A stretch of 34,067 nt of DNA from Cyclobacteriaceae bacterium. GTDB taxonomy: Bacteria > Bacteroidota > Bacteroidia > Cytophagales > Cyclobacteriaceae. Shown one piece after another: positions 1,973 through 30,888 of the stretch. Made by a program: the position numbers and the translations under genes. Numbering within the stretch: position 1 is the stretch's first letter; every line of letters starts with the position of its first letter. Location of the stretch: positions 1 through 34,067 of the forward strand of contig DATDPY010000125.1 in NCBI GenBank assembly GCA_035292565.1, in the 5' to 3' direction. The notes below the pieces were generated by a model. That model had not been told where the DNA came from. It worked only from the letters and a program-made list of their open reading frames with translations, and ran no database searches.

Positions 1973-2685
1973 ATTCTCTGAGCTGCATGATCGTCGATGA
2001 TGAGCCCCTTTCGCAGGATGTACTCAAAAAGTACATCGGTGACATACCCGGACTCCGGCTTACCGCCTGTTGTTTCAATGCCCTCGATGCCGCACAGGCA
2101 CTCCGCGAATCACCCGTCGACCTGATATTCCTGGATATCAACATGCCAAAACTCAGCGGCATCAATCTGCTCAAATCGATGGATAACCCGCCGATGGTTA
2201 TTTTCACCACGGCTTACCCGCAATATGCCGTTGAAGGCTTCGACCTGGATGCCGTGGATTACCTGCTGAAGCCGATATCCTTTGAAAGGTTCATGAAAGC
2301 GGTGAACAAGGCATTCGAGCAGAACAGCAGGAACAGCGAGACAAAATCCTCCTTCAGCGAAGGATTTATGACCATCAAATCGGACAAAAAGTTCTTTAAG
2401 ATCAACTTTTCGGATATCCTTTTTTTCCAGGCATACGGGGATTTTGTGAAAGTGCATCTTACCGATAAGGTACTCGTAACGGCCGGTACCTTGAAAAATC
2501 TTGAACAAATCCTCCCTCCACAGTTTATGCGTGTGCATAAATCTTATATTCTTTCAATCCAGCGGATCAAATATATCGAAGGGAACCGGGTATTTATCGA
2601 GCAATCCGAAATTCCTCTTGGCCCGGGGATGCGGGACATTCTTTTGAACCGGATGGATCCTTCAAAGGAGAAAGGGAATGAGTAA
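1969..2685 (+). CDS. LytTR-family response regulator
   Basis: Receiver domain (IVDDEP, DLIFLDINMP, LLKPI) plus a C-terminal LytTR DNA-binding domain (FVKVHL...MRVHKSYIL). It is translationally coupled to the kinase. Confidence 0.9.
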   Translation: MNSLSCMIVDDEPLSQDVLKKYIGDIPGLRLTACCFNALDAAQALRESPVDLIFLDINMPKLSGINLLKSMDNPPMVIFTTAYPQYAVEGFDLDAVDYLLKPISFERFMKAVNKAFEQNSRNSETKSSFSEGFMTIKSDKKFFKINFSDILFFQAYGDFVKVHLTDKVLVTAGTLKNLEQILPPQFMRVHKSYILSIQRIKYIEGNRVFIEQSEIPLGPGMRDILLNRMDPSKEKGNE

Positions 2686-3523
2686 AAATATCCTGATCAC
2701 CGGCGCCGGCAGCGGGCTTGGAAAAGAAACATCCTGCCGGCTGGCAGCCATGGGTTACAAGGTGATCATGGTTTGCCGGAACCTGGAGTCAGGAGAACCG
2801 GCCCGGCAGGACGTAATTTCAAAATCGGGAAATCCGGATGTCGACTTGCTCATCGCGGATCTGTCATCCTTCGACGGGATCCGGAACCTGGCCGGTGAAA
2901 TATACAGGAAGTATGAAAAACTCGATGTCTTGTTGAACAACGCCGGCGTATTTGTAACCAGGCTGAATTACACCCGCGATGGACATGAACTCCAATGGGC
3001 AGTAAACCACCTCGCCCCGTTTCTTCTCACCGGCCTTCTCATCGATTTGCTGGGAAGATCAACCCCATCGAGGATTATCACGGTGTCGTCTGTGGCGAAC
3101 TATAAAGGCCTGATCCATTTTGATGATCCTAACCTTGAAAAAAAATATAACGGGCTTACGGCTTACCGTCAGTCAAAGCTTGCCAACGTTCTTTTCACCT
3201 TTGAACTCGCCGAAAGAATAAAATCCAGGGGAATCAAAGCCAACTGCCTTCACCCGGGAATAGTCAGAACGCGATTCGGCCACAGGAATAATCATAGCTG
3301 GATGGGTTGGCTCTGGTATTCCTGGAAGCCCTTTATGTTCTCCGTTAAACAGGGAGCATATTGCATGGTGAAACTGGCCTCGGACCCGGCGCTGGAGGGG
3401 ATTAGCGGGAAATATTTCGATTTCGACGGAAAGGAAAAAATCCCGAACCGGCAGGCGCTTGATCCGCTGTTAAGGAATAAGCTCTGGACTATTTCCGAAT
3501 CGAGCACTGGTTTTTCATATTGA
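2678..3523 (+). CDS. SDR-family NAD(P)-dependent oxidoreductase (retinol-dehydrogenase-like)
   Basis: Rossmann motif TGAGSGLG, NNAG, and catalytic YRQSK (YxxxK). The start overlaps the response-regulator stop by 8 nt. Confidence 0.9.
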   Translation: MSKNILITGAGSGLGKETSCRLAAMGYKVIMVCRNLESGEPARQDVISKSGNPDVDLLIADLSSFDGIRNLAGEIYRKYEKLDVLLNNAGVFVTRLNYTRDGHELQWAVNHLAPFLLTGLLIDLLGRSTPSRIITVSSVANYKGLIHFDDPNLEKKYNGLTAYRQSKLANVLFTFELAERIKSRGIKANCLHPGIVRTRFGHRNNHSWMGWLWYSWKPFMFSVKQGAYCMVKLASDPALEGISGKYFDFDGKEKIPNRQALDPLLRNKLWTISESSTGFSY

Positions 3524-3534
3524 AAAAACTCCTG

Positions 3535-3663
3535 TTATTGAACAATTGATCGCAGGAAATTCCCAAGGCCAAATAAAACAGCAAGCCAGATCAGGCCTTT
3601 GACCAGGAAGAACAAAAATCCGATTACCCCAATTCGCTTAAGCCAGGATTTCAATTTGTCCAT
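3535..3663 (-). CDS. Possible 42-aa single-pass membrane peptide (below the ORF-track length cut-off)
   Basis: ATG..TAA ORF translated by hand: MDKLKSWLKRIGVIGFLFFLVKGLIWLAVLFGLGNFLRSIVQ. It has a basic N-terminus followed by one ~25-residue hydrophobic helix. It is the only coherent ORF in the 263-nt gap between the SDR and HTH genes. Confidence 0.3.
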   Translation of the reverse strand: MDKLKSWLKRIGVIGFLFFLVKGLIWLAVLFGLGNFLRSIVQ

Positions 3664-3846
3664 TGGTTGGCAATGAAAATTCTCCTATTAACCGCCCTTT
3701 TATCCGGAATTGCAAACATATTCCTTGTTTAGAATCATTACAAATAAACATGCGATAATTCACCTCAAATTTACACATCATCTCCCGTGTTGTTAAGAAT
3801 AAAAAAATTTGGATTGCATTTTTCTTATATTTCGGTTTTAAATACC

Positions 3847-4848
3847 ATGATACCCTTAATTGAATTACAGCAAAAATTTTTTAATGAAATCAATTTAAAG
3901 ATTCCGCCTAACCACTCGCTCGTTCACGAAGTGTCGGAGATCCTCGGGATCAGCGATGACAGTGTGTACAGGAGAATCCGGGGAGAGAAGGAAATGACAT
4001 TTCATGAAATATTTAAATTATGCTCGCATTTTTCGATTTCCTTCGATAACCTGATGAACCTCGAAAGCCGTAAGGTGATCTTTGAAAGCGTGGCCCTCGA
4101 TCCCGTAAACCTCCGGCTGAGTAACTGGTTCGGGATCATCCTGGAGGAGATGAAAAATATCTCGGCATCCAGGGAAGCCGAAGTAATATATTCTGCTATT
4201 GATCTGCCGGTCTTTCACCTGATGCAGATCCCGGAATTAATGGCATTCAAGATATTCTTCTGGGAAAAGACCTTGTTTCAGTTTCCGGATTATGGTGAGA
4301 AAAAACTTCAGATCAGCGATATCGATGAAAATACAAAAAAGATTTGCCGGCAGATCAACGATCAATGGGTGAAAATACCAACTACCGAAATCTGGAATGC
4401 TGATACGTTTAATATATTCCTGCGTCAGCTGGAGTTTTACTGGCTGGCCGGGTACCTCGAAAGCAGGGATGATGTACTTTCGCTTTGTGATCATCTGATC
4501 GCACTCATCGAGCATATCCGAAAGCAGGCGGAACTCGGAATGAAGTTCCTGATCGATAATCCTTCGAATGGAATTGTTAATTCATTCATCCTTTATGAAA
4601 ATGAGGTTTCCCTGAATGACAATACGATTTTGATCAAGAGAGCCCATGCATCCAAGGTATTCCTGACTTACAATGTCTTAAGTCTTCTTTCCACACAAAA
4701 TGCGGCATTTTGCGCTTATACAGAGAATTATTTGAAGAAATTGATGTCAAAATCCAACCTGATGAGTGTTACCGGCGATAAAACGCGCAATCGATTCTTT
4801 AACAAGGCCCTTAATACCATAACTGCTTTCAGGAACAGGGTTATTTGA
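3847..4848 (+). CDS. Helix-turn-helix transcriptional regulator (BetR-like N-terminal HTH, C-terminal domain unknown)
   Basis: The N-terminal segment LVHEVSEILGISDDSVYRRIRGEKEMTFHEIFKLCSHFSISFDNL looks like a BetR/XRE-type HTH; the family name is from memory. I trimmed the track's GTG start (3787) to the first ATG at 3847. Confidence 0.55.
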   Translation: MIPLIELQQKFFNEINLKIPPNHSLVHEVSEILGISDDSVYRRIRGEKEMTFHEIFKLCSHFSISFDNLMNLESRKVIFESVALDPVNLRLSNWFGIILEEMKNISASREAEVIYSAIDLPVFHLMQIPELMAFKIFFWEKTLFQFPDYGEKKLQISDIDENTKKICRQINDQWVKIPTTEIWNADTFNIFLRQLEFYWLAGYLESRDDVLSLCDHLIALIEHIRKQAELGMKFLIDNPSNGIVNSFILYENEVSLNDNTILIKRAHASKVFLTYNVLSLLSTQNAAFCAYTENYLKKLMSKSNLMSVTGDKTRNRFFNKALNTITAFRNRVI

Positions 4849-4985
4849 TTTTTTCTCCGGACAGGGAGGCTTCCTGTTCGATGTCTTCAGGTATCCGGAT
4901 GTGGCTTGCAGATATTATTGTGACGAGAGACAAGTTGACGGATAATGGGTCGTCATGAAGCCAATAACCAATAACTTAATACATC

Positions 4986-6026
4986 CTACAAATTCCCCAT
5001 CTCAAAATCAATCAGCCATCTCTTGCGCGAAATCCCTCCGCTGTATCCTGTCATGCTGCCGTCTTCACCGATCACCCGGTGACAGGGAATAATGATCGCA
5101 ATCCGGTTCATTCCGTTTGCCCTGGCCACGGCCCTGACGGCATTTTTGTTCTCCAGCGCCAAAGCCATTCCCTTATAGGTCCGGGTTTCGCCATAGGGGA
5201 TCTTCAGCAAATGTTCCCAGACAAGATTCTGGAATTGTGATCCCGGGGTCAGCAATGGAAGGTTAAAACTTTTACGGGTACCTTCGAAATATTCCCGCAT
5301 TTGTTTTTCGAGTGCTGCAAAATGTTTGTTGTAACCATATAGGATATTCGCTCCCAGCCTCACCTTCAGGTCTTTCAGCTCTGATTCCAGCATTCTCCTG
5401 TCGGTGAATTCTACAAGGCATATTCCTTCTTCAACAGCACAGGCTATCATGGGTCCCAGCGGGGTCGAAAAGCGGTGCATATTGATCACCTTCGCCTGAC
5501 CTGCCCGCGACGGAGACTCCCCGACCAGGTATTTAAAAGCATCGGAAAATCCGCTTAGCGAATCATACCCATTGTCGAAAGCCGCATCCGTTACCCTTGA
5601 GCCTGCAGAAAGCTGCTGCCAGGCCGTATTGATCCTCATCATGCGCTGGTAACCCTGAAAAGTAATACCATGGCGGGATTTAAACCAGCGCCTGACGCGG
5701 TTCGGTTCAATGTTCATATTGACCAGGTCCGAATCCGAGATTTTTACCAGGGGATCTTCTTCAATCTTTGAAATTAAATTCTGTATGTAGGAGGGGATGT
5801 TCCCGGGAGATTCCAGGGGATGGCATAGCCTGCAGGGACGGTAGCCGTTCATCATGGCTTCCCTGGCCGTTGTAAAATATTCTACATTCTCGGGTTTGGG
5901 TTTACGCGCCGTGCATGTTGGCCTGCAGAATATCCCCGTGGTCCTGATGGCAGCATAAAATAACCCCTCATAGGAGCTGTCTTTCCTTATCAGGGCATCG
6001 TACATGATTTCAGGATTAAGGCCCAT
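4986..6026 (-). CDS. ada: Bifunctional Ada: Zn-finger methylphosphotriester acceptor + AraC-type HTH + O6-methylguanine-DNA methyltransferase
   Basis: N-terminal Cys cluster FCRPTCTARKPKPENV...YRPCRLC (Ada Zn-binding domain), AraC HTH (RRWFKSRHGITFQGYQRMMRI), and a C-terminal AGT active site IIIPCHRVIG (PCHR motif). Confidence 0.9.
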   Translation of the reverse strand: MGLNPEIMYDALIRKDSSYEGLFYAAIRTTGIFCRPTCTARKPKPENVEYFTTAREAMMNGYRPCRLCHPLESPGNIPSYIQNLISKIEEDPLVKISDSDLVNMNIEPNRVRRWFKSRHGITFQGYQRMMRINTAWQQLSAGSRVTDAAFDNGYDSLSGFSDAFKYLVGESPSRAGQAKVINMHRFSTPLGPMIACAVEEGICLVEFTDRRMLESELKDLKVRLGANILYGYNKHFAALEKQMREYFEGTRKSFNLPLLTPGSQFQNLVWEHLLKIPYGETRTYKGMALALENKNAVRAVARANGMNRIAIIIPCHRVIGEDGSMTGYSGGISRKRWLIDFEMGNL

Positions 6027-6038
6027 ACTTTTTTATAT

Positions 6039-6046
6039 CAAAAGTA
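6039..6046 (-). promoter_or_regulatory. Candidate Bacteroidota -7 promoter box (TACTTTTG = TAnnTTTG) for ada
   Basis: Exact match to TAnnTTTG on the minus strand, 12 nt upstream of the ada ATG. The motif is short and will also occur by chance in AT-rich spacers. Confidence 0.3.
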
Positions 6047-6100
6047 ATTTTTGTCAAACGTTCTGACAACCGGAAATCTGACAGGGAATTTTTAATTACT

Positions 6101-6411
6101 AATCATTCTTGCCGGTAATAATGGAAATTGACAACAATTCGTTGCCTAAAATTATTTAATTCGAATAACTTTTTTCTTCTTGCCACGAATTGACCCCGCT
6201 TTTCACGGTGTACCAATGTACTGGAGGAATTCGTCCTAATGCCAAAGGCAAATTCGTGTATTCATGGTTAAATTTTTTATGTATTTGCCACGAATGACTC
6301 GAATGGCACGAATTGACACCGCTTATCGCCGTGTAAGAATTTCCTGGAGGAATTCGTATTAATGCCAAAGGCATATTCGTGTACCCGCCTGCCTGCGGGC
6401 AGGTTCGTGGC
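6101..6411. repeat. Composite intergenic repeat, locus A (ATTCGTG/CACGAAT-rich element with an internal tandem duplication)
   Basis: The left end AATCATTCTTGCCGGTAATAATGGAAATTGACAACAATTCGTT and the right end GGTTCGTGGCTAAAAATTC both recur at locus B (9548..9911). The interior holds two ~85-nt units (6182-6266 and 6305-6389) at ~85% identity. Confidence 0.8.
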
Positions 6412-6534
6412 TAAAAATTCTATCTGCCATAACTAAAGCAATCGGGCGGCAGGCAGGAATCTCCCGCTAGCCATTCCCATCGGCAGTTAGCCCGGGGATA
6501 ACATCTCAATTCTAATATTGATTTGTAATTACTA

Positions 6535-7098
6535 TTATTTCTTAAATAAGATTTCCATTTCGTGGCGAACATTCCTGGCCTGGATCAGGTGCCTTTGTTC
6601 GTGGGCCACGATGATCTCGAAAGCTTTTTCAAGTTTATATACAACGAACCTGCTCCCGGGCGATCGGATCACCACGCCGCGTGTCACCAGGTCCTCACAG
6701 GATTTTATAAAGTGAATCAATTCCGACTGGTGGTTTACAAACTGGTTAACCATATCGGCATCGATAGTGCTTGATGAGGGCTGCCAGACGGCAAAAGTTT
6801 TCGTCCTTGGTTTATAGTCTGGACCGACATATTTAAGCAATGAATTCCCGAGAAACCGGGCTATGGCTTCGCTCTTTCCCCAGAATGGAATTTTATAGTT
6901 ACCCTTTCTGACGGCATCGGCCACAGGAAAATAGGTATTGTTCACGGTGATCAGGTGATGAATAACCTGGCCAATGCTCCAGGCGTCGGGACGCGGCTTC
7001 CAGTTCAGTTTTTCCGAGGTCAGGTCCCCGAATTCATCCCTGAATGACCGGGTAATGCTTTCAATAGCGGTTTCAAGCTGAAGTGTAATGGCTGACAT
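6535..7098 (-). CDS. DinB-family (DinB_2 four-helix bundle) protein
   Basis: Typical DinB_2 signature: WSIGQVIHHLI near the N-terminus and a C-terminal AHEQRHLIQA (His triad). Confidence 0.8.
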   Translation of the reverse strand: MSAITLQLETAIESITRSFRDEFGDLTSEKLNWKPRPDAWSIGQVIHHLITVNNTYFPVADAVRKGNYKIPFWGKSEAIARFLGNSLLKYVGPDYKPRTKTFAVWQPSSSTIDADMVNQFVNHQSELIHFIKSCEDLVTRGVVIRSPGSRFVVYKLEKAFEIIVAHEQRHLIQARNVRHEMEILFKK

Positions 7099-22427: not shown

Positions 22428-22532
22428 ATGTATGGATTGAATGAACTTACACCGGGGGGGTTTATTGCCCTGGTGATAGGCATGATTATCATTTACATCC
22501 TTTATCGGATGGTATTTAAAAATAAAAGATGA
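22428..22532 (+). CDS. Possible 34-aa single-pass membrane peptide (below the ORF-track cut-off)
   Basis: Hand translation gives MYGLNELTPGGFIALVIGMIIIYILYRMVFKNKR: one hydrophobic helix followed by a basic tail. The ORF starts 24 nt after the AsmA stop, and its stop lies 7 nt before the REP hairpin. Confidence 0.25.
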   Translation: MYGLNELTPGGFIALVIGMIIIYILYRMVFKNKR

Positions 22533-22539
22533 AACTTCT

Positions 22540-22582
22540 GGTCGTAGCTTCGCGCTACGACCTCGAGCGTCTCACTACGACC
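22540..22582. repeat. REP-like hairpin(s), left of the RAYT gene
   Basis: GGTCGTAGC-ttcgc-GCTACGACC (perfect 9-bp stem, 22540-22562), followed by a half copy AGCGTCTCaCTACGACC (22566-22582). Confidence 0.85.
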
Positions 22583-22715
22583 ATTTCTGAACTGCAACTT
22601 GTAAAATTCAATTCAACCCTATAAATTGTATCCTATCAGCTATCGATCGGGCCCCCGCTTCGATAAGTGATTAGGGTTATTTATATTTATTAAATAAAAT
22701 ATTTTTCCGTCAGCT

Positions 22716-23270
22716 ATGGGAAGAAAGTATCTTATTCGCGACCAGGATGCAATCTATTTCCTGACTTTTACAGTCGTGCACTGGATTGATATCTTCACAA
22801 GAAATGTTTACAAGGAAATCTTTATTGAAAGTGTAAAGCATTGCCAGCAAAAGAAAGGCCTTGACGTATATGCCTGGTGCATCATGACAAACCATATTCA
22901 TGCCATTCTTGGATCCAGTGGCGTTATGAAACTTGAGGACATTATCCGTGATTTTAAAAGTTTTACTTCCCGGCATATAAGAAAAGAATTAGAACAAAAC
23001 TTATCGGAAAGCAGAAGCAAATGGATACTGAACCTTCTTTACACAACCGGCTTGACCAATAAAAGGAACAATGATTTTCAGCTTTGGCAGCAGCATAACC
23101 ATCCCATTGAATTATCAACGAACGAAATGATGGATCAAAGGCTGGATTATACGCATTACAATCCGGTTAAAGCGGGATTTGTCGAAAAACCGGAAGATTG
23201 GTTGTGGAGCAGTGCAATGGATTACTATGGAACCGGGAAGGGAAAGTTGGAATTAAAGTTTATTGAATAA
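22716..23270 (+). CDS. REP-associated tyrosine transposase (RAYT; IS200/IS605-like Y1 HUH transposase)
   Basis: HUH motif in CIMTNHIHAILG, a catalytic-Tyr region RLDYTHYNPVKAGFV (Y.H.NPV.AG), ~184 aa, and flanking REP hairpins. Confidence 0.85.
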   Translation: MGRKYLIRDQDAIYFLTFTVVHWIDIFTRNVYKEIFIESVKHCQQKKGLDVYAWCIMTNHIHAILGSSGVMKLEDIIRDFKSFTSRHIRKELEQNLSESRSKWILNLLYTTGLTNKRNNDFQLWQQHNHPIELSTNEMMDQRLDYTHYNPVKAGFVEKPEDWLWSSAMDYYGTGKGKLELKFIE

Positions 23271-23286
23271 TAAAATGTTAAAATTA

Positions 23287-23309
23287 GGTCGTAGCGAGAC
23301 GCTACGACC
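23287..23309. repeat. REP-like hairpin, right of the RAYT gene
   Basis: GGTCGTAGCG-aga-CGCTACGACC, a perfect 10-bp stem with the same arm sequence as the left hairpin. Confidence 0.85.
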
Positions 23310-23380
23310 AGAGATGGTTCTTTTATTTTTATTCGGTATTTTCGAGCCAGGTTCATCCCTTGTTTTTTACAATTCACACA

Positions 23381-26218
23381 ATGAAAAAAGTAATTTTATT
23401 TCTCCTGATCATTTTAGCATCATTAGCTGGTTTTTACCCGGCTGATACTGCTTTTATTGCCGCTGAAAATCATTCTCACCCTGCTAATTATGAAATCCAG
23501 ATACCACTGCCCGAACACCCCCGCCCGGATTTCGAAAGACCGGATTGGATCAACCTCAATGGCGAATGGCAGTTCAAATTCGACTCTGCAAATGCCGGAA
23601 TAGACCGGCAATGGTTTGGAGAGAAAAATGAATATCCCGACAGGATCACCGTTCCCTTTTCCTGGGGATCAAACCTGTCGGGCATTGAAGATAAAGCCGA
23701 TATTGGCTGGTATAAAAAAATGATCCGGGTTCCATCCTCCTGGAAGGGCAAGAGGATCTTCCTCGTGATCGGCGCATCCGACTGGCTGAGCAAGGCCTGG
23801 CTCGACGGCAATTACATCGGCGAATTCCAGGGTGGTTATTCGCAATTTGAATTTGAACTGACTGATCATGTAAGTCATGACACACCCCAGGATATCGTCA
23901 TCAGGGTTGATGACAGCCCGCATGCCTTTAAGCTCGAAGGAAAACAGGGGTATGGCAACGTGAGGGGAATCTGGCAAACACCATATCTCGAAGCCCGGGG
24001 AAAAAATTTTATCGAGTATATCCATTTTACCCCCGATATCGACCGCGAACTGGTGACCGTTGAAGGCCGGCTTGCCGCCCGCCCGGAAAGCGGCGCCTCC
24101 CTGCTATTAGCCATTAACGAAAACCGGGCAAATAAAAAATTGGTCGACCAGAAGCTGAATCCGGAAAGCCGGGATTTTTCTTTTTCCGTTCCGATCGATG
24201 ATCCCCGCCTGTGGTCGATCGATGATCCCTACCTCTATTCCGCAACTGCAGAGTTGGTATCAGGGAAAACATCCGTAGATAAGGTCTCCACCTATTTCGG
24301 TATGAGGAAGATTGGAACTATGAAACTTCCCGGAACCGATTACATGTATGTATCGCTGAACAATAAGCCTGTTTACTTGAAAATGACCCTCGACCAGGCG
24401 TACCACCCGGATGGATTTTACACCTGGCCTTCGGATGAATTCATGCGCGATGAGATCATCCGTTCGAAAAAACTGGGCCTGAACTGCAACAGGATCCATG
24501 TGAAGATCGACCTGCCGAGGAAACTTTACTGGGCCGACAGGCTCGGCTTGCTGATCATGGCCGACGTCCCGAATTCCTGGGGGGAACCGGATGCGTTGAT
24601 GAAAAAAGAATCGGAAACGGCTATGGAAAAGATGATCCACCGCGACTACAACCACCCTTCCGTCTTTTCATGGATTTTATTCAACGAAACGTGGGGCCTG
24701 TTTACGAAAACCGACAGCGGCCGGCTGTACCTGCCCCAAACCCAGGAATGGGTGGCTGAAATGTACAGAAAGGCCAAAGCCCTCGATAATACCCGGCTGG
24801 TTGAAGATAATTCAGCCTGCAACTATGACCACGTGATGACGGACATCAATACCTGGCACGCCTATCTTCCGGGATATGGCTGGGAAAAAATGCTGGATGA
24901 ATTCACCGGTAAAACTTTCCCGGGATCGGGATTCAACTTTGCCAAAGGATATTTGCAAACCAACCAGCCCATGCTGAACAGCGAGTGCGGGAATGTGTGG
25001 GGATATGAGGGAAGCACCGGCGATATCGACTGGAGCTGGGATTACCATATCATGATGAACCAGTTCCGCATGCACCCGAAGGTGGCAGGCTGGCTTTATA
25101 CCGAACATCACGATGTGATCAACGAGTGGAACGGGTATTATCGTTTCGACCGCTCTGAAAAGTATCCTGGTTTCGAAGAACTTGCGGAAGGCATGATGCT
25201 TGCCGACCTCCATAGCGATATTTACCTGGTCCCCGGGTCCGACCTTTGCACCGACCAGTTCCCCGGAGCGGAAGTATCCGTACCGCTGTGGATTTCTACC
25301 ATGACCGACAGGGTGCCGGCAGAGAACGCCGTCATTCATGCCAGAATGAAGTGGTGGAACGAATTGGGGGTCCCCTTCACCGATGACCTGGGAACACAGG
25401 TTGCTCCCATAAAATCCTGGGCCCTGACAGATGCAGGTACGTGGAAGATAAAGCTTCCCGACACGGAAGGACTGGCGATACTGTCATTCCGTGTTGAAGA
25501 TCCTTCAGGAAATGCCATCCATCGAAATTTCCTGACCTTTAATATTACCGATAGTAAAGAAAACAGCCTGTTTGACGTTACAGATCCTTCAGGAAAATTT
25601 AAAGTGCTTTCATTTGGACCGGCAGCCCCGGCCAGTCAGGATTGGTCCGTAAAACAATGGATTTCCATGAATGGAAAGAAGCTGAACGGCGCCGGGACCG
25701 GATATTTTGAATATCGTGTAGACATCCCTTCCGATATTGTCTTGAGCGACATTATCGAAGCGACTTTCCGGGCTGAGCTTTCCGCAAAGGAGTTGTTTGG
25801 GAAAGATGTTGGGGATTCGAAAATGGAGGGAGATTATATGCGCGGAAAAGGTACCTTCGACCCCGGCAGAAACCCCAATGCCTATCCTATGACTGACGAA
25901 AAGAAGTTTCCGTCGATCGTCACTATATCGGTCAATGGCAGAGTGATCGGAACACAGTACCTTCCGGATGATCCGGCCGATCACCGGGGAATTCTTTCAT
26001 GGCACAGCCAGCTTAAGGATCGAAAGCTCCGGGATGCCGGCTCCTACGGATACCTGGTCAGCTTGAGCATACCAACTGATGTGCTTGCCGATGCCATACG
26101 CCGCAGGATGTTCACCATCCGACTTGAAGCCAACCAGATTGGCGGAGGACTGGCAGTTTATGGGCGGAACAGCGGCAGGTATCCTCTCGATCCATCCTTC
26201 ATCTTCCGGATGAAGTAG
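23381..26218 (+). CDS. Glycoside hydrolase family 2 (beta-galactosidase/beta-glucuronidase-like), secreted
   Basis: Signal peptide from M at 23381 (MKKVILFLLIILASLAGF). N-terminal sugar-binding-domain pattern (INLNGEWQFKFD...VPFSW), and the GH2 acid/base block RDYNHPSVFSWILFNE. Confidence 0.8.
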   Translation: MKKVILFLLIILASLAGFYPADTAFIAAENHSHPANYEIQIPLPEHPRPDFERPDWINLNGEWQFKFDSANAGIDRQWFGEKNEYPDRITVPFSWGSNLSGIEDKADIGWYKKMIRVPSSWKGKRIFLVIGASDWLSKAWLDGNYIGEFQGGYSQFEFELTDHVSHDTPQDIVIRVDDSPHAFKLEGKQGYGNVRGIWQTPYLEARGKNFIEYIHFTPDIDRELVTVEGRLAARPESGASLLLAINENRANKKLVDQKLNPESRDFSFSVPIDDPRLWSIDDPYLYSATAELVSGKTSVDKVSTYFGMRKIGTMKLPGTDYMYVSLNNKPVYLKMTLDQAYHPDGFYTWPSDEFMRDEIIRSKKLGLNCNRIHVKIDLPRKLYWADRLGLLIMADVPNSWGEPDALMKKESETAMEKMIHRDYNHPSVFSWILFNETWGLFTKTDSGRLYLPQTQEWVAEMYRKAKALDNTRLVEDNSACNYDHVMTDINTWHAYLPGYGWEKMLDEFTGKTFPGSGFNFAKGYLQTNQPMLNSECGNVWGYEGSTGDIDWSWDYHIMMNQFRMHPKVAGWLYTEHHDVINEWNGYYRFDRSEKYPGFEELAEGMMLADLHSDIYLVPGSDLCTDQFPGAEVSVPLWISTMTDRVPAENAVIHARMKWWNELGVPFTDDLGTQVAPIKSWALTDAGTWKIKLPDTEGLAILSFRVEDPSGNAIHRNFLTFNITDSKENSLFDVTDPSGKFKVLSFGPAAPASQDWSVKQWISMNGKKLNGAGTGYFEYRVDIPSDIVLSDIIEATFRAELSAKELFGKDVGDSKMEGDYMRGKGTFDPGRNPNAYPMTDEKKFPSIVTISVNGRVIGTQYLPDDPADHRGILSWHSQLKDRKLRDAGSYGYLVSLSIPTDVLADAIRRRMFTIRLEANQIGGGLAVYGRNSGRYPLDPSFIFRMK

Positions 26219-27244: not shown

Positions 27245-27266
27245 GGTTTACAGACCTCTTATATTG

Positions 27267-27301
27267 AACTGCCGCGGACAAATTGTTCCGGCAGTTTTTT
27301 T
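27267..27301 (+). terminator. Rho-independent terminator after the DUF1080 gene
   Basis: AACTGCCG (27267-27274) pairs perfectly with CGGCAGTT (27289-27296) and is followed by a 7-T run (27295-27301). It lies 23 nt after the stop codon. Confidence 0.7.
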
Positions 27302-27437
27302 ATAAATATTCGATTTAAACACCCATCAATCTCACGAAGTGGACTCCGATGGAGGTGTAGAAATCTTTTTCCCCTTCAGAGTCTCCCGCCGGGCTGGGTG
27401 CGTACGCGCCGGGGACTCTGATGACCAGAAAGAAATT

Positions 27438-28214
27438 CTATAGAATAACTGATTTCCCCATTCTCCAAGTAAGTACTTCCTGCAAAGGCTTACTTACAAA
27501 GATTGACATATCAGCATTTGGAAAATAATATATTTTAACAATATCTGGATTACTGTTTGAAACTCTAAGCTCTTCAAAATTACCTAACTTCTCTATGAAT
27601 AAATCTTTATCCCAATGAGTTCCTACTACCACATTATTCATTACCCAGGATTGCTTCAAATCTAAACTCTTTTTCTCCTCAGCAGATCCAAATTCAGTTG
27701 AAAGACTTATATCGTATGTATCACTTATAACTGATTTTATGCCTTTTGATATCGCATTTCCATCATTTGCTCCCCATCTTGGGTAAAATGTAACTTCCGC
27801 TTCATAATCTCCACTTGGTAATTCGAATGTATTGATATCAAATTTAAAGGCATAAGGTGTCATATCAACCCGAATTTTTTTGTCGGCACCAATATATATA
27901 TCTTCTGGTTTCTGATTTTTTAAATTAATACTAGCCATCATTTCGACAGGTAATGGAATATTTGTCTCAATTGTATATTCTACAGTATTTGCACTAACAA
28001 CAACAGCTTTTACTTCGATCTTTAGATTTGAAGGTAATGTATTTCGAGCCCTCGGAATTACTGCTACTGAGTCTTTTTTAACTATTGGTCTTTGTTCATC
28101 AATATTTGATGTGTCCAAATCCTTACCCGAGCTTAACGAATTAATCTCTTTGGGAGATTTTGAGGAGCATGAGAACATTACAGCTATTGTGGCTATAAAA
28201 AATAATTTATCCAT
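27438..28214 (-). CDS. Orphan lipoprotein of unknown function (AT-rich island gene 1)
   Basis: I trimmed the start to M at 28214, giving MDKLFFIATIAVMFSCSSK (lipobox). The body is beta-rich, I recognise no motif, and the codon usage is very AT-rich. Confidence 0.65.
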   Translation of the reverse strand: MDKLFFIATIAVMFSCSSKSPKEINSLSSGKDLDTSNIDEQRPIVKKDSVAVIPRARNTLPSNLKIEVKAVVVSANTVEYTIETNIPLPVEMMASINLKNQKPEDIYIGADKKIRVDMTPYAFKFDINTFELPSGDYEAEVTFYPRWGANDGNAISKGIKSVISDTYDISLSTEFGSAEEKKSLDLKQSWVMNNVVVGTHWDKDLFIEKLGNFEELRVSNSNPDIVKIYYFPNADMSIFVSKPLQEVLTWRMGKSVIL

Positions 28215-28506
28215 TATATTATTGTCGAAAATAAAAATAACAAAAAATATGTTAAACTGTAATGGACATTCACTAAAAAATACAAATAATTCTTCAATAA
28301 CCATGAGCCAACTAACTATACTTATCATAACTATCGCATCAGGGTTTCGCGAGGGTGGACTCTCATGGGAGAAAAGTAATAAACCTGATGAAGCAACCTT
28401 GATTTTACATAAAGAATTATCGCTAAAATTACTATATCTTTTTCGACATGTTACTGAATATACATTAAATTTACTAACCCTTTAACCCAACGCTTTTGAC
28501 GATGTA

Positions 28507-29238
28507 ATGAGAAAGCTTACTGTTTTATTAATTATTGCTATTTTGATTTTGATTCCGAGTGTTTTATTTATTATTAATTTTAAAAATCAAATTATTTCTG
28601 ATGATATAACTGATTGGTCAGCATTTGGCACATATTTCGCCGGAACGGTTGGCACACTTATTACAATCCTCGCGATTTTAATTGTATATGTGACATTTTT
28701 AAATCAAAAAGAACAACAATTCGAAAATAGATATAATCAACTTTTAAACTCGTATTCAACTCATCTCAACTTAATACATGAAAAATGGTTAATGTTTCCA
28801 ACGCCTGTTGAATACCTTACAGGTAGGGAAATATTTGGATGTGCAGCTAATTATTTCTATCACGAAAACCCAGTTAAAAATAATTATGAAGAAAGGTTTA
28901 ATAAAATGCATCAAACACATATAAATGTATTTGGAAGTTATATTAATTTTTTATTGGAAGTTATTGATACAATTAAGAAGCGCTCTAACCTGGATAAGAC
29001 CACATCAGATTATTACTTACAGAGATTTAGTTTCACTATGTCGTTTTATGAGTTAGTATATTTTGGGTATTATTCGTTATATCATCTAAAGAGTAAAGAA
29101 AAAGAATTATTTAATACGATTTTAAGAAATTTTCTTTTTAGAATTAATATTGATTATTCAACAGAATTGCAACATCGAGAGGTAGCATTATATTTAAAAG
29201 AAAAATTGTTCTCACCGCAGAAAAAGATTAATACTTAA
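28507..29238 (+). CDS. AbiC-like putative abortive-infection membrane protein (putAbiC architecture; island gene 2)
   Basis: Two N-terminal TM helices separated by DWSAFGTYFAGTVGTL, then Q..EQQFENRYNQLLNSY. This matches the remembered putAbiC pattern (FGD.FGG..., then Q....QFE..FF.LL). The C-terminal domain is soluble and alpha-helical. Confidence 0.55.
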   Translation: MRKLTVLLIIAILILIPSVLFIINFKNQIISDDITDWSAFGTYFAGTVGTLITILAILIVYVTFLNQKEQQFENRYNQLLNSYSTHLNLIHEKWLMFPTPVEYLTGREIFGCAANYFYHENPVKNNYEERFNKMHQTHINVFGSYINFLLEVIDTIKKRSNLDKTTSDYYLQRFSFTMSFYELVYFGYYSLYHLKSKEKELFNTILRNFLFRINIDYSTELQHREVALYLKEKLFSPQKKINT

Positions 29239-29322
29239 TCCTCCTATTAAAAAAAAGTATAATTTATATAACAGAAATTCAGAAAACCTTTTCCTCCTTT
29301 GTGTTATTTAAAATTAACGACG

Positions 29323-29886
29323 ATGGACTTCAAAAAACATTTAATACAAGCCTATTTAGGGATAGACTTTACCGCTCAATTTATTGCAATGAAAAAAAGT
29401 TTACCTAATACAAGCTTAGAAGATTTCTATCAAGCTTGGCAAAGAAAAAACGGGATATCTCCGATTCAAGATAAAAATGAAATCTTTACACCTGGGTTAT
29501 TCTTAGGTTATTTATATGTAGCTGTCGTTTTGTTTCAACAAAGCAATGAAGATAAGATTCCAAATACACCAATTAATAAATTAGATAAAACCCTTTGGGG
29601 TAATATATATATTAATTCCAAAATAAATTCTGGAAAAAATAAGCAATGGAAACAATTTAATTGGAATTCTATTAATGAAACAACCATAAAATATATTATT
29701 AGAAGAATTAGAAATTCTTTATCACATTTTAATTTCATAATAGATGATGACTGGTACTTCACCTTTTATGATGATCCTGATAAGAATAATAAATATGAAA
29801 AATCCGAAATATCTATTAAATTTTCATTTGATGATTTAGCATTTAAATTTTTACCTACCTTGAATAGTTTTTTAATGAACGAGTAA
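29323..29886 (+). CDS. Small HEPN-like protein with an Rx4H motif (putative RNase; island gene 3)
   Basis: IIRRIRNSLSHFNF contains RNSLSH (nt 29710-29727), the canonical HEPN R-N-x3-H catalytic signature. The protein is ~187 aa from the ATG at 29323 (the track start at 29299 is TTG). Its size is typical of stand-alone Abi-type HEPN proteins. Confidence 0.55.
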   Translation: MDFKKHLIQAYLGIDFTAQFIAMKKSLPNTSLEDFYQAWQRKNGISPIQDKNEIFTPGLFLGYLYVAVVLFQQSNEDKIPNTPINKLDKTLWGNIYINSKINSGKNKQWKQFNWNSINETTIKYIIRRIRNSLSHFNFIIDDDWYFTFYDDPDKNNKYEKSEISIKFSFDDLAFKFLPTLNSFLMNE

Positions 29887-30045
29887 TAAACGTCACAAAA
29901 CATGTCGGTATGGCCAATTCCTAAATCTTATTTCTTGATTTCTTCCGAAATTCTTTCTAGTTTCTGTTCCAGAATAATGATTGACCATTTATATCCGGTA
30001 ACGGCTTTATCGACCTACCATTGGCTGTAATAGTTCCATAAGGAG

Positions 30046-30681
30046 ATGAGTTACCTTAATAGAGTATTAAAATGGATATGGGAAGGAAAGTATTTATACA
30101 TACTTATTATCCTTTTATTATTGGTATTATTAGCAGACAATATATGTATCGACGGACTCGGAACGGCTGATAATATTCGAATTTATGGATTACTTCTACA
30201 ATTGACAGGCGCAATGATAATTGTATACTCATTAAAGGAAAAACTAATTTTATTCAAAGGACATGGTCTTGGAACATTTCTACTAAATTATTTTAAAACA
30301 TTCCCTAAAACAGAAAAGAAACGAATTTTAGAAACGAAGGGTAATATAAAAGGATCCTCAATTGTGTCAGGGAATGCAAGAGTTCTGAAGAGACCAATTG
30401 AAGACCTTAAAGACATCATTCGATACTTTGATGAGGAAATTCAATTTCTGCATAAACAACTAATGAAGACAAAGGCAGAATTGAAAAATGACATTACGAC
30501 AGTAAAAACAAACTTAGATGAAGTAAGAAAAAGGTTAGGAAAACAAATAGAAGATACACAACAATTAATTTCGGACTCAACAATATCAAATGTATGGGTT
30601 GACTTATTTGGGATTTCAATTATTTTTATTGGACTAATATATGGAACGATTCCTGATCTTGTAGAGAAGATAATTTGGTGA
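30046..30681 (+). CDS. 3-TM membrane protein with a central coiled coil (island gene 4), function unknown
   Basis: TM helices at about residues 17-31 (YLYILIILLLLVLLA), 44-63 (IRIYGLLLQLTGAMIIVYSL) and 183-203 (VWVDLFGISIIFIGLIYGTI). A heptad-like charged segment lies between them (IEDLKDIIRYFDEEIQFLHKQLMKTKAELKNDITTVKTNLDEVRKRLGKQIEDTQQL). Confidence 0.6.
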   Translation: MSYLNRVLKWIWEGKYLYILIILLLLVLLADNICIDGLGTADNIRIYGLLLQLTGAMIIVYSLKEKLILFKGHGLGTFLLNYFKTFPKTEKKRILETKGNIKGSSIVSGNARVLKRPIEDLKDIIRYFDEEIQFLHKQLMKTKAELKNDITTVKTNLDEVRKRLGKQIEDTQQLISDSTISNVWVDLFGISIIFIGLIYGTIPDLVEKIIW

Positions 30682-30888
30682 AATACTTTTATAGCCAACA
30701 CGCTGACGATTATGGGAAAATGATTATTCGATATTCTTAATAAAAGTATTAAATTGAATAAAAGTTAAATATGATTTGGAGAATAATGTGGTAGTCGTAT
30801 TTCCCCCTATCAGAATCTCTACCATGCCCTCTGTCGATCCAAAAATCTTTCCTATCTTTCCGGATCTTAATTTCATAAACCAAATGCT

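Follow-up and report, generated by a model that had tools for sequence, protein, structure and literature searches.

A divergent pEK499_p136-like HEPN protein, a predicted endoribonuclease, encoded in an AT-rich islet of a Cyclobacteriaceae genome

The contig DATDPY010000125.1 of a Cyclobacteriaceae bacterium (assembly GCA_035292565.1), whose 34,067 nucleotides are hereafter called the window, was analysed for a small gene of the HEPN superfamily (Pfam PF18736, pEK499_p136-like) that occupies 29323..29886 on the plus strand, stop codon counted, and encodes a protein of 187 aa. The gene was defined by the open reading frame (ORF) call, the Pfam match, comparison with relatives, hhalign and an AlphaFold model. 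Taken together, the results make it probable that the product is a very divergent pEK499_p136-like HEPN protein, likely a metal-independent endoribonuclease, which is carried as solitary mobile cargo and acts as a toxin or a defence effector. Membership of PF18736 by the window protein is established from sequence and profile comparison; cleavage of RNA as a ribonuclease (RNase), dimer formation, a function in defence or as a toxin, and the way in which it is restrained are predictions.

Reading frame and Rx4H motif

The ORF starts with ATG at 29323, contains 187 codons and is closed by TAA at 29884-29886. Starting instead from an in-frame TTG at 29299 would lengthen the N terminus by 8 residues; the ATG start was favoured because alignments with homologues begin only at about residue 5-9. 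The guanine-plus-cytosine (GC) content around the ORF is 0.26-0.29, and it is unlikely that a frame of 187 codons would be open by chance at such AT content.

The codons AGA AAT TCT TTA TCA CAT at 29710..29727 (plus strand) specify R130-N131-S132-L133-S134-H135, which, from the sequence, its conservation and the model, is the predicted catalytic Rx4H motif and lies inside IKYIIRRIRNSLSHFNF (residues 122-138). Position and residues agree with the initial annotation of this DNA, which had reported RNSLSH at these nucleotides. With the polar N131 directly after R130, the motif has the form by which the HEPN superfamily is recognised, namely Rx4-6H whose arginine is followed by a polar N, D or H (PMC3710099).

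Alone, the Rx4H motif is weak evidence, because among shuffled versions of the protein (n=100,000) Rx4H occurred in 4.1% and R[NDH]x3H in 0.7%. A motif-like string, IRNSLEHA, was also found in the unrelated solved integrase domain 2kd1 by sequence and profile searches of the PDB, and was judged to be a chance match. As such strings arise both in shuffled sequences and in 2kd1, homology and conservation were therefore regarded as the real test.

Family membership and conservation

The protein matched the PF18736 model ("HEPN pEK499_p136") with 43.5 bits against a gathering cut-off of 26.6 (E 3.5e-11), the match spanning residues 51-177 and profile positions 25-142 of 152; no model of NCBIfam or PADLOC matched it. 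A word-indexed homology search with the single protein returned only the protein itself. By an exhaustive HMMER search of 1.84 billion representatives, 46 relatives were obtained at E<=1e-3, the best of them 44% identical; in a comparison with about 15 billion proteins, too, the closest reached only 44% identity. PF18736 was matched by 41/41 of the relatives that were aligned, and a profile made from this alignment retrieved 113 proteins, all of which carry the PF18736 annotation and several of which are designated 'HEPN family nuclease' in NCBI naming.

The namesake of the family is WP_000528932.1 on the E. coli plasmid pEK499 (NC_013122, 111726-112226), which scores 168 bits on PF18736. The relatives' profile was aligned with this namesake by hhalign over 130 columns with the RNSxxH residues in register (Prob 96.4%, E 1.1e-9), and pairwise BLASTP aligned 23 residues of the motif region only (30% identical, E 0.001). 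Weak secondary Pfam matches among the relatives fell on other HEPN families, namely HEPN_MAE_28990 in 3 proteins (best E 0.0023), the Csm6 HEPN domain in 1 and RiboL-PSP-HEPN in 1, and they give minor independent support for a link to the HEPN superfamily.

In the alignment of 41 relatives, R130 and H135 were invariant, and N131, G93, F35 and D150 were conserved in at least 90%. When 150 family proteins were compared, R130 and H135 were present in all (150/150, 100%) and N131 in 149/150 (99%), followed by D150, W92 and Y65 (95%), G58 and P80 (94%) and G93 (93%); RNxxxH was found in 153/156 family proteins. The motif thus proved to be conserved among homologues, a point that the initial annotation had left to be checked. 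Its proposal of a HEPN protein of the pEK499_p136-like type was upheld as well, by the PF18736 match above the cut-off, the hhalign probability, the invariance of the motif and the position of the motif at a helix end in the model described below.

The window protein shares with the pEK499_p136 family the invariant R-N-[AS]-[LI]-x-H and the block order PG..L..LY, WG, RRxRNxxxH and F.D, of which the RRxRNxxxH block reads RRIRNSLSH here. It also resembles the family in size (166-200 aa), in consisting of a single domain and in lying on mobile DNA, where family members are found among toxin-antitoxin and mobile-element genes. It differs from the family in carrying Q72-Q73 and an extra insert of ~17 residues (about 103-119) ahead of the motif helix; this insert is common to the closest relative (P0002). 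The sub-branch to which the window protein belongs is small, divergent and AT-rich, with about 28 representatives.

Predicted structure

A single-sequence AlphaFold model was poor (predicted local distance difference test, pLDDT, 51) and was replaced by a model built with the 41-sequence alignment (pLDDT 91.9; predicted template modelling score, pTM, 0.86). In the latter, helices were placed at residues 3-26, 32-42, 57-78, 122-134 and 169-185, all of them long except 32-42, and strands at 138-140, 145-150 and 163-168. A mostly irregular insert (79-121) separates the helices 57-78 and 122-134. The strands form a three-stranded beta insert (residues 138-168; 29734..29826, plus strand) that links the motif helix to the final one; this insert was recognised from the model and from conservation and holds D150, conserved in 95% of the family. 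The initial annotation had placed the motif within a predicted helix, and in the model it does lie at the C-terminal end of the helix 122-134.

HEPN domains have been described as a helix-2, an insert and a helix-3 with the motif where helix-3 ends, and in Csx1 a beta-hairpin follows the motif (PMC3710099). As modelled, the motif position and the helix order of the window protein fit this description.

Proposed activity and its alternatives

The active site of HEPN proteins forms across a dimer, as in the structures of HepT, Csm6 and Cas13. In the window protein, two subunits would accordingly join their motifs into one active site. If the protein works as characterised HEPN RNases do, the general base acting on the ribose 2'-OH would be H135, transition-state stabilisation or backbone binding would fall to R130 and N131, and the predicted cleavage products would carry 2',3'-cyclic phosphate ends. 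The published biochemistry of HEPN RNases describes a metal-independent reaction in which the histidine activates the 2'-OH, the arginine and the next polar residue stabilise the transition state, and 2',3'-cyclic phosphate ends are produced (PMC3710099). The gene is single-gene cargo on a small AT-rich islet and probably encodes either a conflict or defence effector of an abortive-infection-like kind or an addiction toxin. Restraint by a dedicated antitoxin encoded next to it is improbable; low expression, narrow substrate specificity or the requirement for a trigger would be the more likely, and the most economical, means.

Several observations weigh against this proposal. Foldseek comparison of the model with the PDB and with the predicted viral structures of BFVD gave no match at E<=0.001 (best E about 1, template modelling score <0.3); Foldseek perhaps has difficulty with small helical bundles that carry inserts. 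When PDB chains were searched by sequence and by profile, there was likewise no family match beyond the chance motif in 2kd1, so that no structural representative of PF18736 was found in the PDB by sequence, profile or Foldseek searches. In the literature searched, no biochemical test of any PF18736 member was found, and the assignment of PF18736 to the HEPN superfamily itself rests on profile comparisons of 2013 (PMC3710099) together with the motif. At the end of helix 2, the K-E pair found in 84% of the family, which may supply the auxiliary acidic residue of HEPN sites, is replaced by Q72-Q73 in the window protein. As to the biological role, defence is inferred from genomic context: there was no PADLOC match, and with the queries used no relatives were found when the HEPN protein and its neighbours were compared by tblastn with phage and plasmid records and in two viral-contig scans.

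The confident model with no structural neighbour, the outcome of the literature search and the Q-Q replacement, together with the occurrence of IRNSLEHA in 2kd1, which places such strings outside HEPN proteins, would suit a protein that is not an RNase: one of another fold that uses R-N-x3-H otherwise, for example for ligand or nucleotide binding, or a catalytically impaired copy. We consider this unlikely, since strict invariance of R, N and H, in proteins sharing only 23-45% identity elsewhere, is what would be expected at a catalytic site, the motif position and helix order of the model match the HEPN description, and the secondary Pfam matches of the relatives belong to other HEPN families. 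The glutamine at position 73 is shared by 19/150 members, including the closest relative P0002, and is therefore better explained as a sub-branch trait than as decay. An endoribonuclease thus remains the favoured assignment.

Genomic contexts of PF18736 relatives

A metagenome scan added 37 loci, and the neighbour analysis comprised 43 loci, in each of which ORFs up to two genes away from the HEPN gene were considered. When the 114 neighbouring ORFs were clustered, 101 were singletons, and only two kinds of neighbour recurred: tyrosine recombinases, in five loci of which two are near-identical, and IS1595 transposases, in two loci.

Within the close sub-branch, the surroundings of individual relatives were diverse. 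The gene of the closest relative (P0002) is convergent with genes for a DNA methyltransferase and an HATPase; P0003 lies amid small ORFs of no known function and a contractile-injection tube gene, P0004 between gyrB and a Phd/PIN pair, and P0005 next to a DUF6887 gene, and P0012 is preceded by radical-SAM genes and followed by a weak PIN match. The gene of P0006 (locus L095, positions 259-1260) is located in an AT-rich insert of ~700 bp within GC-richer DNA, and the gene fragment after it, read from its translation alone, is a truncated oxidoreductase. Just upstream of P0006 there is a 91-aa ORF with an SDVDVLI-type motif and a sub-threshold match to the Polbeta nucleotidyltransferase family (E 0.072); it is possibly an MNT-like antitoxin paired with the PF18736 gene, or a remnant beside it, and is the only such case in the 43 loci.

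Among the more distant members, the copy of Thiovibrio resides in an island with HigB/A, HicB and Phd/YoeB genes, that of Pseudomonas beside prophage-type genes (Phage_base_V and HP1_ORF34 matches) and a gene for a DUF6161 protein, and that of a Chloroflexi genome beside a tyrosine recombinase gene. In Thiovibrio frasassiensis (JAPHEH010000001.1; locus L006, positions 4841-6594), the product of the gene directly upstream of the PF18736 gene resembles DUF4145 weakly (E 0.001), and DUF4145 is another HEPN family of the 2013 survey (PMC3710099). The pEK499 namesake (locus L090, positions 36727-38013; NC_013122, 111726-113012) is situated between VapBC pairs and insertion sequence (IS) elements. 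The gene that starts 13 nt past it encodes a hypothetical protein of 257 aa, which is soluble and was not matched by Pfam. No relative of this protein was found beside the other family members examined, and it could be a lineage-specific partner.

In one metagenomic contig (Ga0307428_1000736; locus L100, positions 2633-5109), the PF18736 gene is the first cassette beside a divergent recombinase gene, whose product, with 441.6 bits on TIGR02249 (cut-off 265), is a bona fide integron integrase. Past the stop codon of the HEPN gene comes a strongly folding, imperfect attC-like hairpin (GTCTAAC...GTTATGT, z -3.4) and then a series of small ORFs on the same strand. This arrangement shows that PF18736 genes move as integron cassettes too. 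Related recombinase fragments were seen at the same position in three further loci (L113, L114 and L115). No attC-like structure was detected beside the window gene, where the spacers folded no better than their shuffles (z +1.25, +0.16 and -1.33).

The 2013 survey lists associations of the pEK499_p136 family with restriction-modification, ART/Macro, NamA and Pgl genes (PMC3710099), and the toxin-antitoxin, prophage, restriction-modification and integron surroundings of the relatives are in line with that table. PF18736 genes behave as solitary, mobile genes.

The AT-rich islet in the window

The HEPN gene and three orphan ORFs make up an AT-rich islet (about 27245..30888), delimited by GC composition and by the flanking genes. 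The islet is 3.6 kb long and has a GC content of 0.26-0.32 (about 0.27), against 0.45-0.52 in the flanks. It is set among carbohydrate-utilisation genes, with genes for a GH2 glycosidase and a 3-keto-disaccharide hydrolase on one side and genes for a xylose-isomerase-like TIM-barrel protein and a sulfatase on the other, and it lies between the hydrolase and TIM-barrel genes. With proteins of Chryseolinea, Cyclobacteriaceae, Flammeovirgaceae and other Cytophagales genomes the flanking hydrolase shares 60-71% identity, which marks the host as a Cytophagales-like member of the Bacteroidota. A genome scan based on this hydrolase showed the downstream synteny to be kept in 0/80 related loci and yielded no empty site, and the ends of the islet are for this reason undefined by comparison. 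Flanking direct or inverted repeats, a tRNA gene and a recombinase gene were looked for at the islet edges and not found, and the ORFs of the window that were scanned near the islet included no integrase. The islet is presumed to have been acquired horizontally.

An IS200-like Y1 transposase gene (22716-23270, plus strand; PF01797, E 3.9e-10) is located ~4 kb upstream of the islet, in a low-GC pocket (0.377 at 22501-23500).

The orphan ORF farthest upstream (27438..28328, minus strand; 296 aa) was matched by nothing in Pfam, NCBIfam, PHROGs or PADLOC. Read from an internal Met, its sequence begins MDKLFFIATIAVMFSCSS..., which resembles a lipoprotein signal peptide with a lipobox Cys; for this reason the true start is probably ~38 codons downstream of the listed one, and the product is probably a lipoprotein.

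Membrane-protein neighbours

The initial annotation had described a short, AT-rich gene between two membrane proteins, which agrees with the GC content of 0.26-0.29 and with strongly hydrophobic segments in both flanking ORFs by Kyte-Doolittle hydropathy. The upstream neighbour (28507..29238, plus strand; 243 aa) has two N-terminal hydrophobic segments, at residues 1-31 and 39-68, and is separated by 84 nt from the HEPN gene on the same strand. Its best family match was a weak one to phrog_8999 (phage, function unknown; E 4e-4), and only two homologues, 58-60% identical, were found in a collection of 5.8 billion proteins. Its two-helix N terminus is reminiscent of putative AbiC-like proteins, and Pfam returned no such match. 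The downstream neighbour (30046..30681, plus strand; 211 aa) has hydrophobic ends (residues 10-41 and 179-206) and a coiled-coil-like middle part, and begins 159 nt after the HEPN gene on the same strand; it gave weak matches of the coiled-coil type, including PADLOC LeoC (E 0.003) in the coiled-coil part. None of the three islet neighbours had a significant family match in Pfam, PADLOC, NCBIfam or PHROGs.

Given their common strand, gaps of 84 and 159 nt and shared aberrant composition, the three co-oriented genes might be thought to form a single membrane-anchored module, with the membrane proteins detecting a signal or keeping the RNase in an inactive state; the strong hydrophobic segments of both neighbours and the weak phrog_8999 and LeoC matches would be compatible with such an arrangement. 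The contexts of relatives make it very unlikely. The sole homologue of the 243-aa protein with usable context (locus L091, 58% identical) has a TPR protein before it and, after it, a 161-aa protein that hhalign shows not to be a HEPN (Prob 0.2%), and the closest HEPN relatives (P0002-P0006 and P0012) have unrelated neighbours. Homologues of the islet neighbours occurred in 0/43 HEPN loci, and hydrophobic neighbours of HEPN genes were not enriched (19/70 at +-1 and 11/44 at +-2), these proportions being close to the usual genomic share of membrane proteins. A search of the islet for sigma-70 and Bacteroidetes-type promoter motifs and for terminators gave nothing above chance, so that neither kind of motif defines an operon. 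The suggestion in the initial annotation that the membrane neighbours restrain the RNase was not borne out by these comparisons.

In a more specific form of the idea, two orphan membrane proteins, one having two N-terminal transmembrane helices and the other a coiled coil flanked by transmembrane helices, would gate a PF18736 RNase and form with it a membrane-anchored abortive-infection module not described before; its recent assembly would then account for its not being conserved elsewhere. We give this scarcely any credence.

A 216-aa protein encoded downstream of P0006 has hydrophobic ends like those of the 211-aa ORF product. It shows no sequence similarity to the latter, has no Pfam match and heads a polysaccharide gene cluster, and the resemblance was set aside as coincidental.

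Search for an antitoxin and comparison with known systems

That no cognate antitoxin such as an MNT nucleotidyltransferase adjoins the gene, as first noted from the DNA, was supported by domain searches: neither a nucleotidyltransferase (MNT) nor any other antitoxin domain was found in the three neighbouring ORFs with Pfam and NCBIfam, and PADLOC gave the same result. The window protein itself had no match to the HepT families of Pfam. Only short, unconserved ORFs were present in the intergenic regions by the HEPN gene, and searches of the islet revealed no tandem repeats, no noteworthy Rfam match and no significantly structured spacers.

HEPN toxins are commonly paired with antitoxins, for example with MNT in HepT/MntA (PMC7641770, PMC11586414), and the gene might accordingly encode the toxin of a conventional toxin-antitoxin pair with an unrecognised antitoxin, for instance an unannotated small ORF, an RNA of the antisense or repeat type, or a gene at another place in the genome. 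The soluble 257-aa protein that follows the pEK499 namesake after 13 nt and the 91-aa ORF with its weak Polbeta match before the L095 relative could be read in the same sense. Against these stand the searches of the flanking ORFs, the intergenic regions and the islet just described, the recurrence of a partner in 0/43 loci, and the lack of relatives of the pEK499 partner beside other members; such a downstream partner is also absent from the window. A hidden antitoxin is on balance quite improbable, and a solitary gene is preferred.

Like HepT of the type VII HepT/MntA systems, the window protein is a small HEPN protein with Rx4H for which an RNase toxin is predicted or, in the known systems, shown. 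Unlike HepT, it is accompanied by no adjacent MNT gene and matches no HepT family of Pfam; because MNT is absent, the gene is not regarded as a HepT/MntA module, and neutralisation by AMPylation has no candidate enzyme here. A further difference suggested by the model is the three-stranded beta insert in the connection between helix 3 and helix 4 of the window protein. We know of no HepT with such an insert.

AbiV-type HEPN proteins and gp57r of mycobacteriophage Butters resemble the window protein as single small HEPN-motif proteins able to protect against phages with no dedicated antitoxin. Butters gp57r, a weakly HEPN-like protein, is reported to be a one-gene antiphage system and to be non-toxic alone, and its HHpred probability to pEK499_p136 is just 55% (10.1101/2023.01.03.522681). 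No homology to these proteins has been demonstrated, and the Abi models of PADLOC do not match the window protein. Such proteins offer the closest functional analogy for the tolerance of a solitary HEPN protein. A HEPN protein from an integron cassette is also known (PDB 3jrt; PMC3710099), to which the PF18736 relative of locus L100 is comparable as a first integron cassette; the 3jrt protein belongs to a separate HEPN family, and the window gene has neither an integrase gene nor an attC-like structure nearby. The window gene is neither a described PADLOC defence protein nor an integron cassette.

Significance

For this gene, the analysis is mostly confirmation and annotation rather than discovery, and no new kind of system is proposed; the missing structural neighbour is the only mildly surprising element. 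A HEPN family described in 2013 is extended by a very divergent Bacteroidota member (<=44% identity among about 15 billion proteins). For the family as a whole, R-N-x3-H proved absolutely conserved, the fold is predicted with confidence and yet has no structural neighbour that could be detected, and the genes are solitary and mobile, integron cassettes included, with no partner that recurs. This makes PF18736 a reasonable target for studying how hosts tolerate HEPN nucleases that lack an antitoxin.

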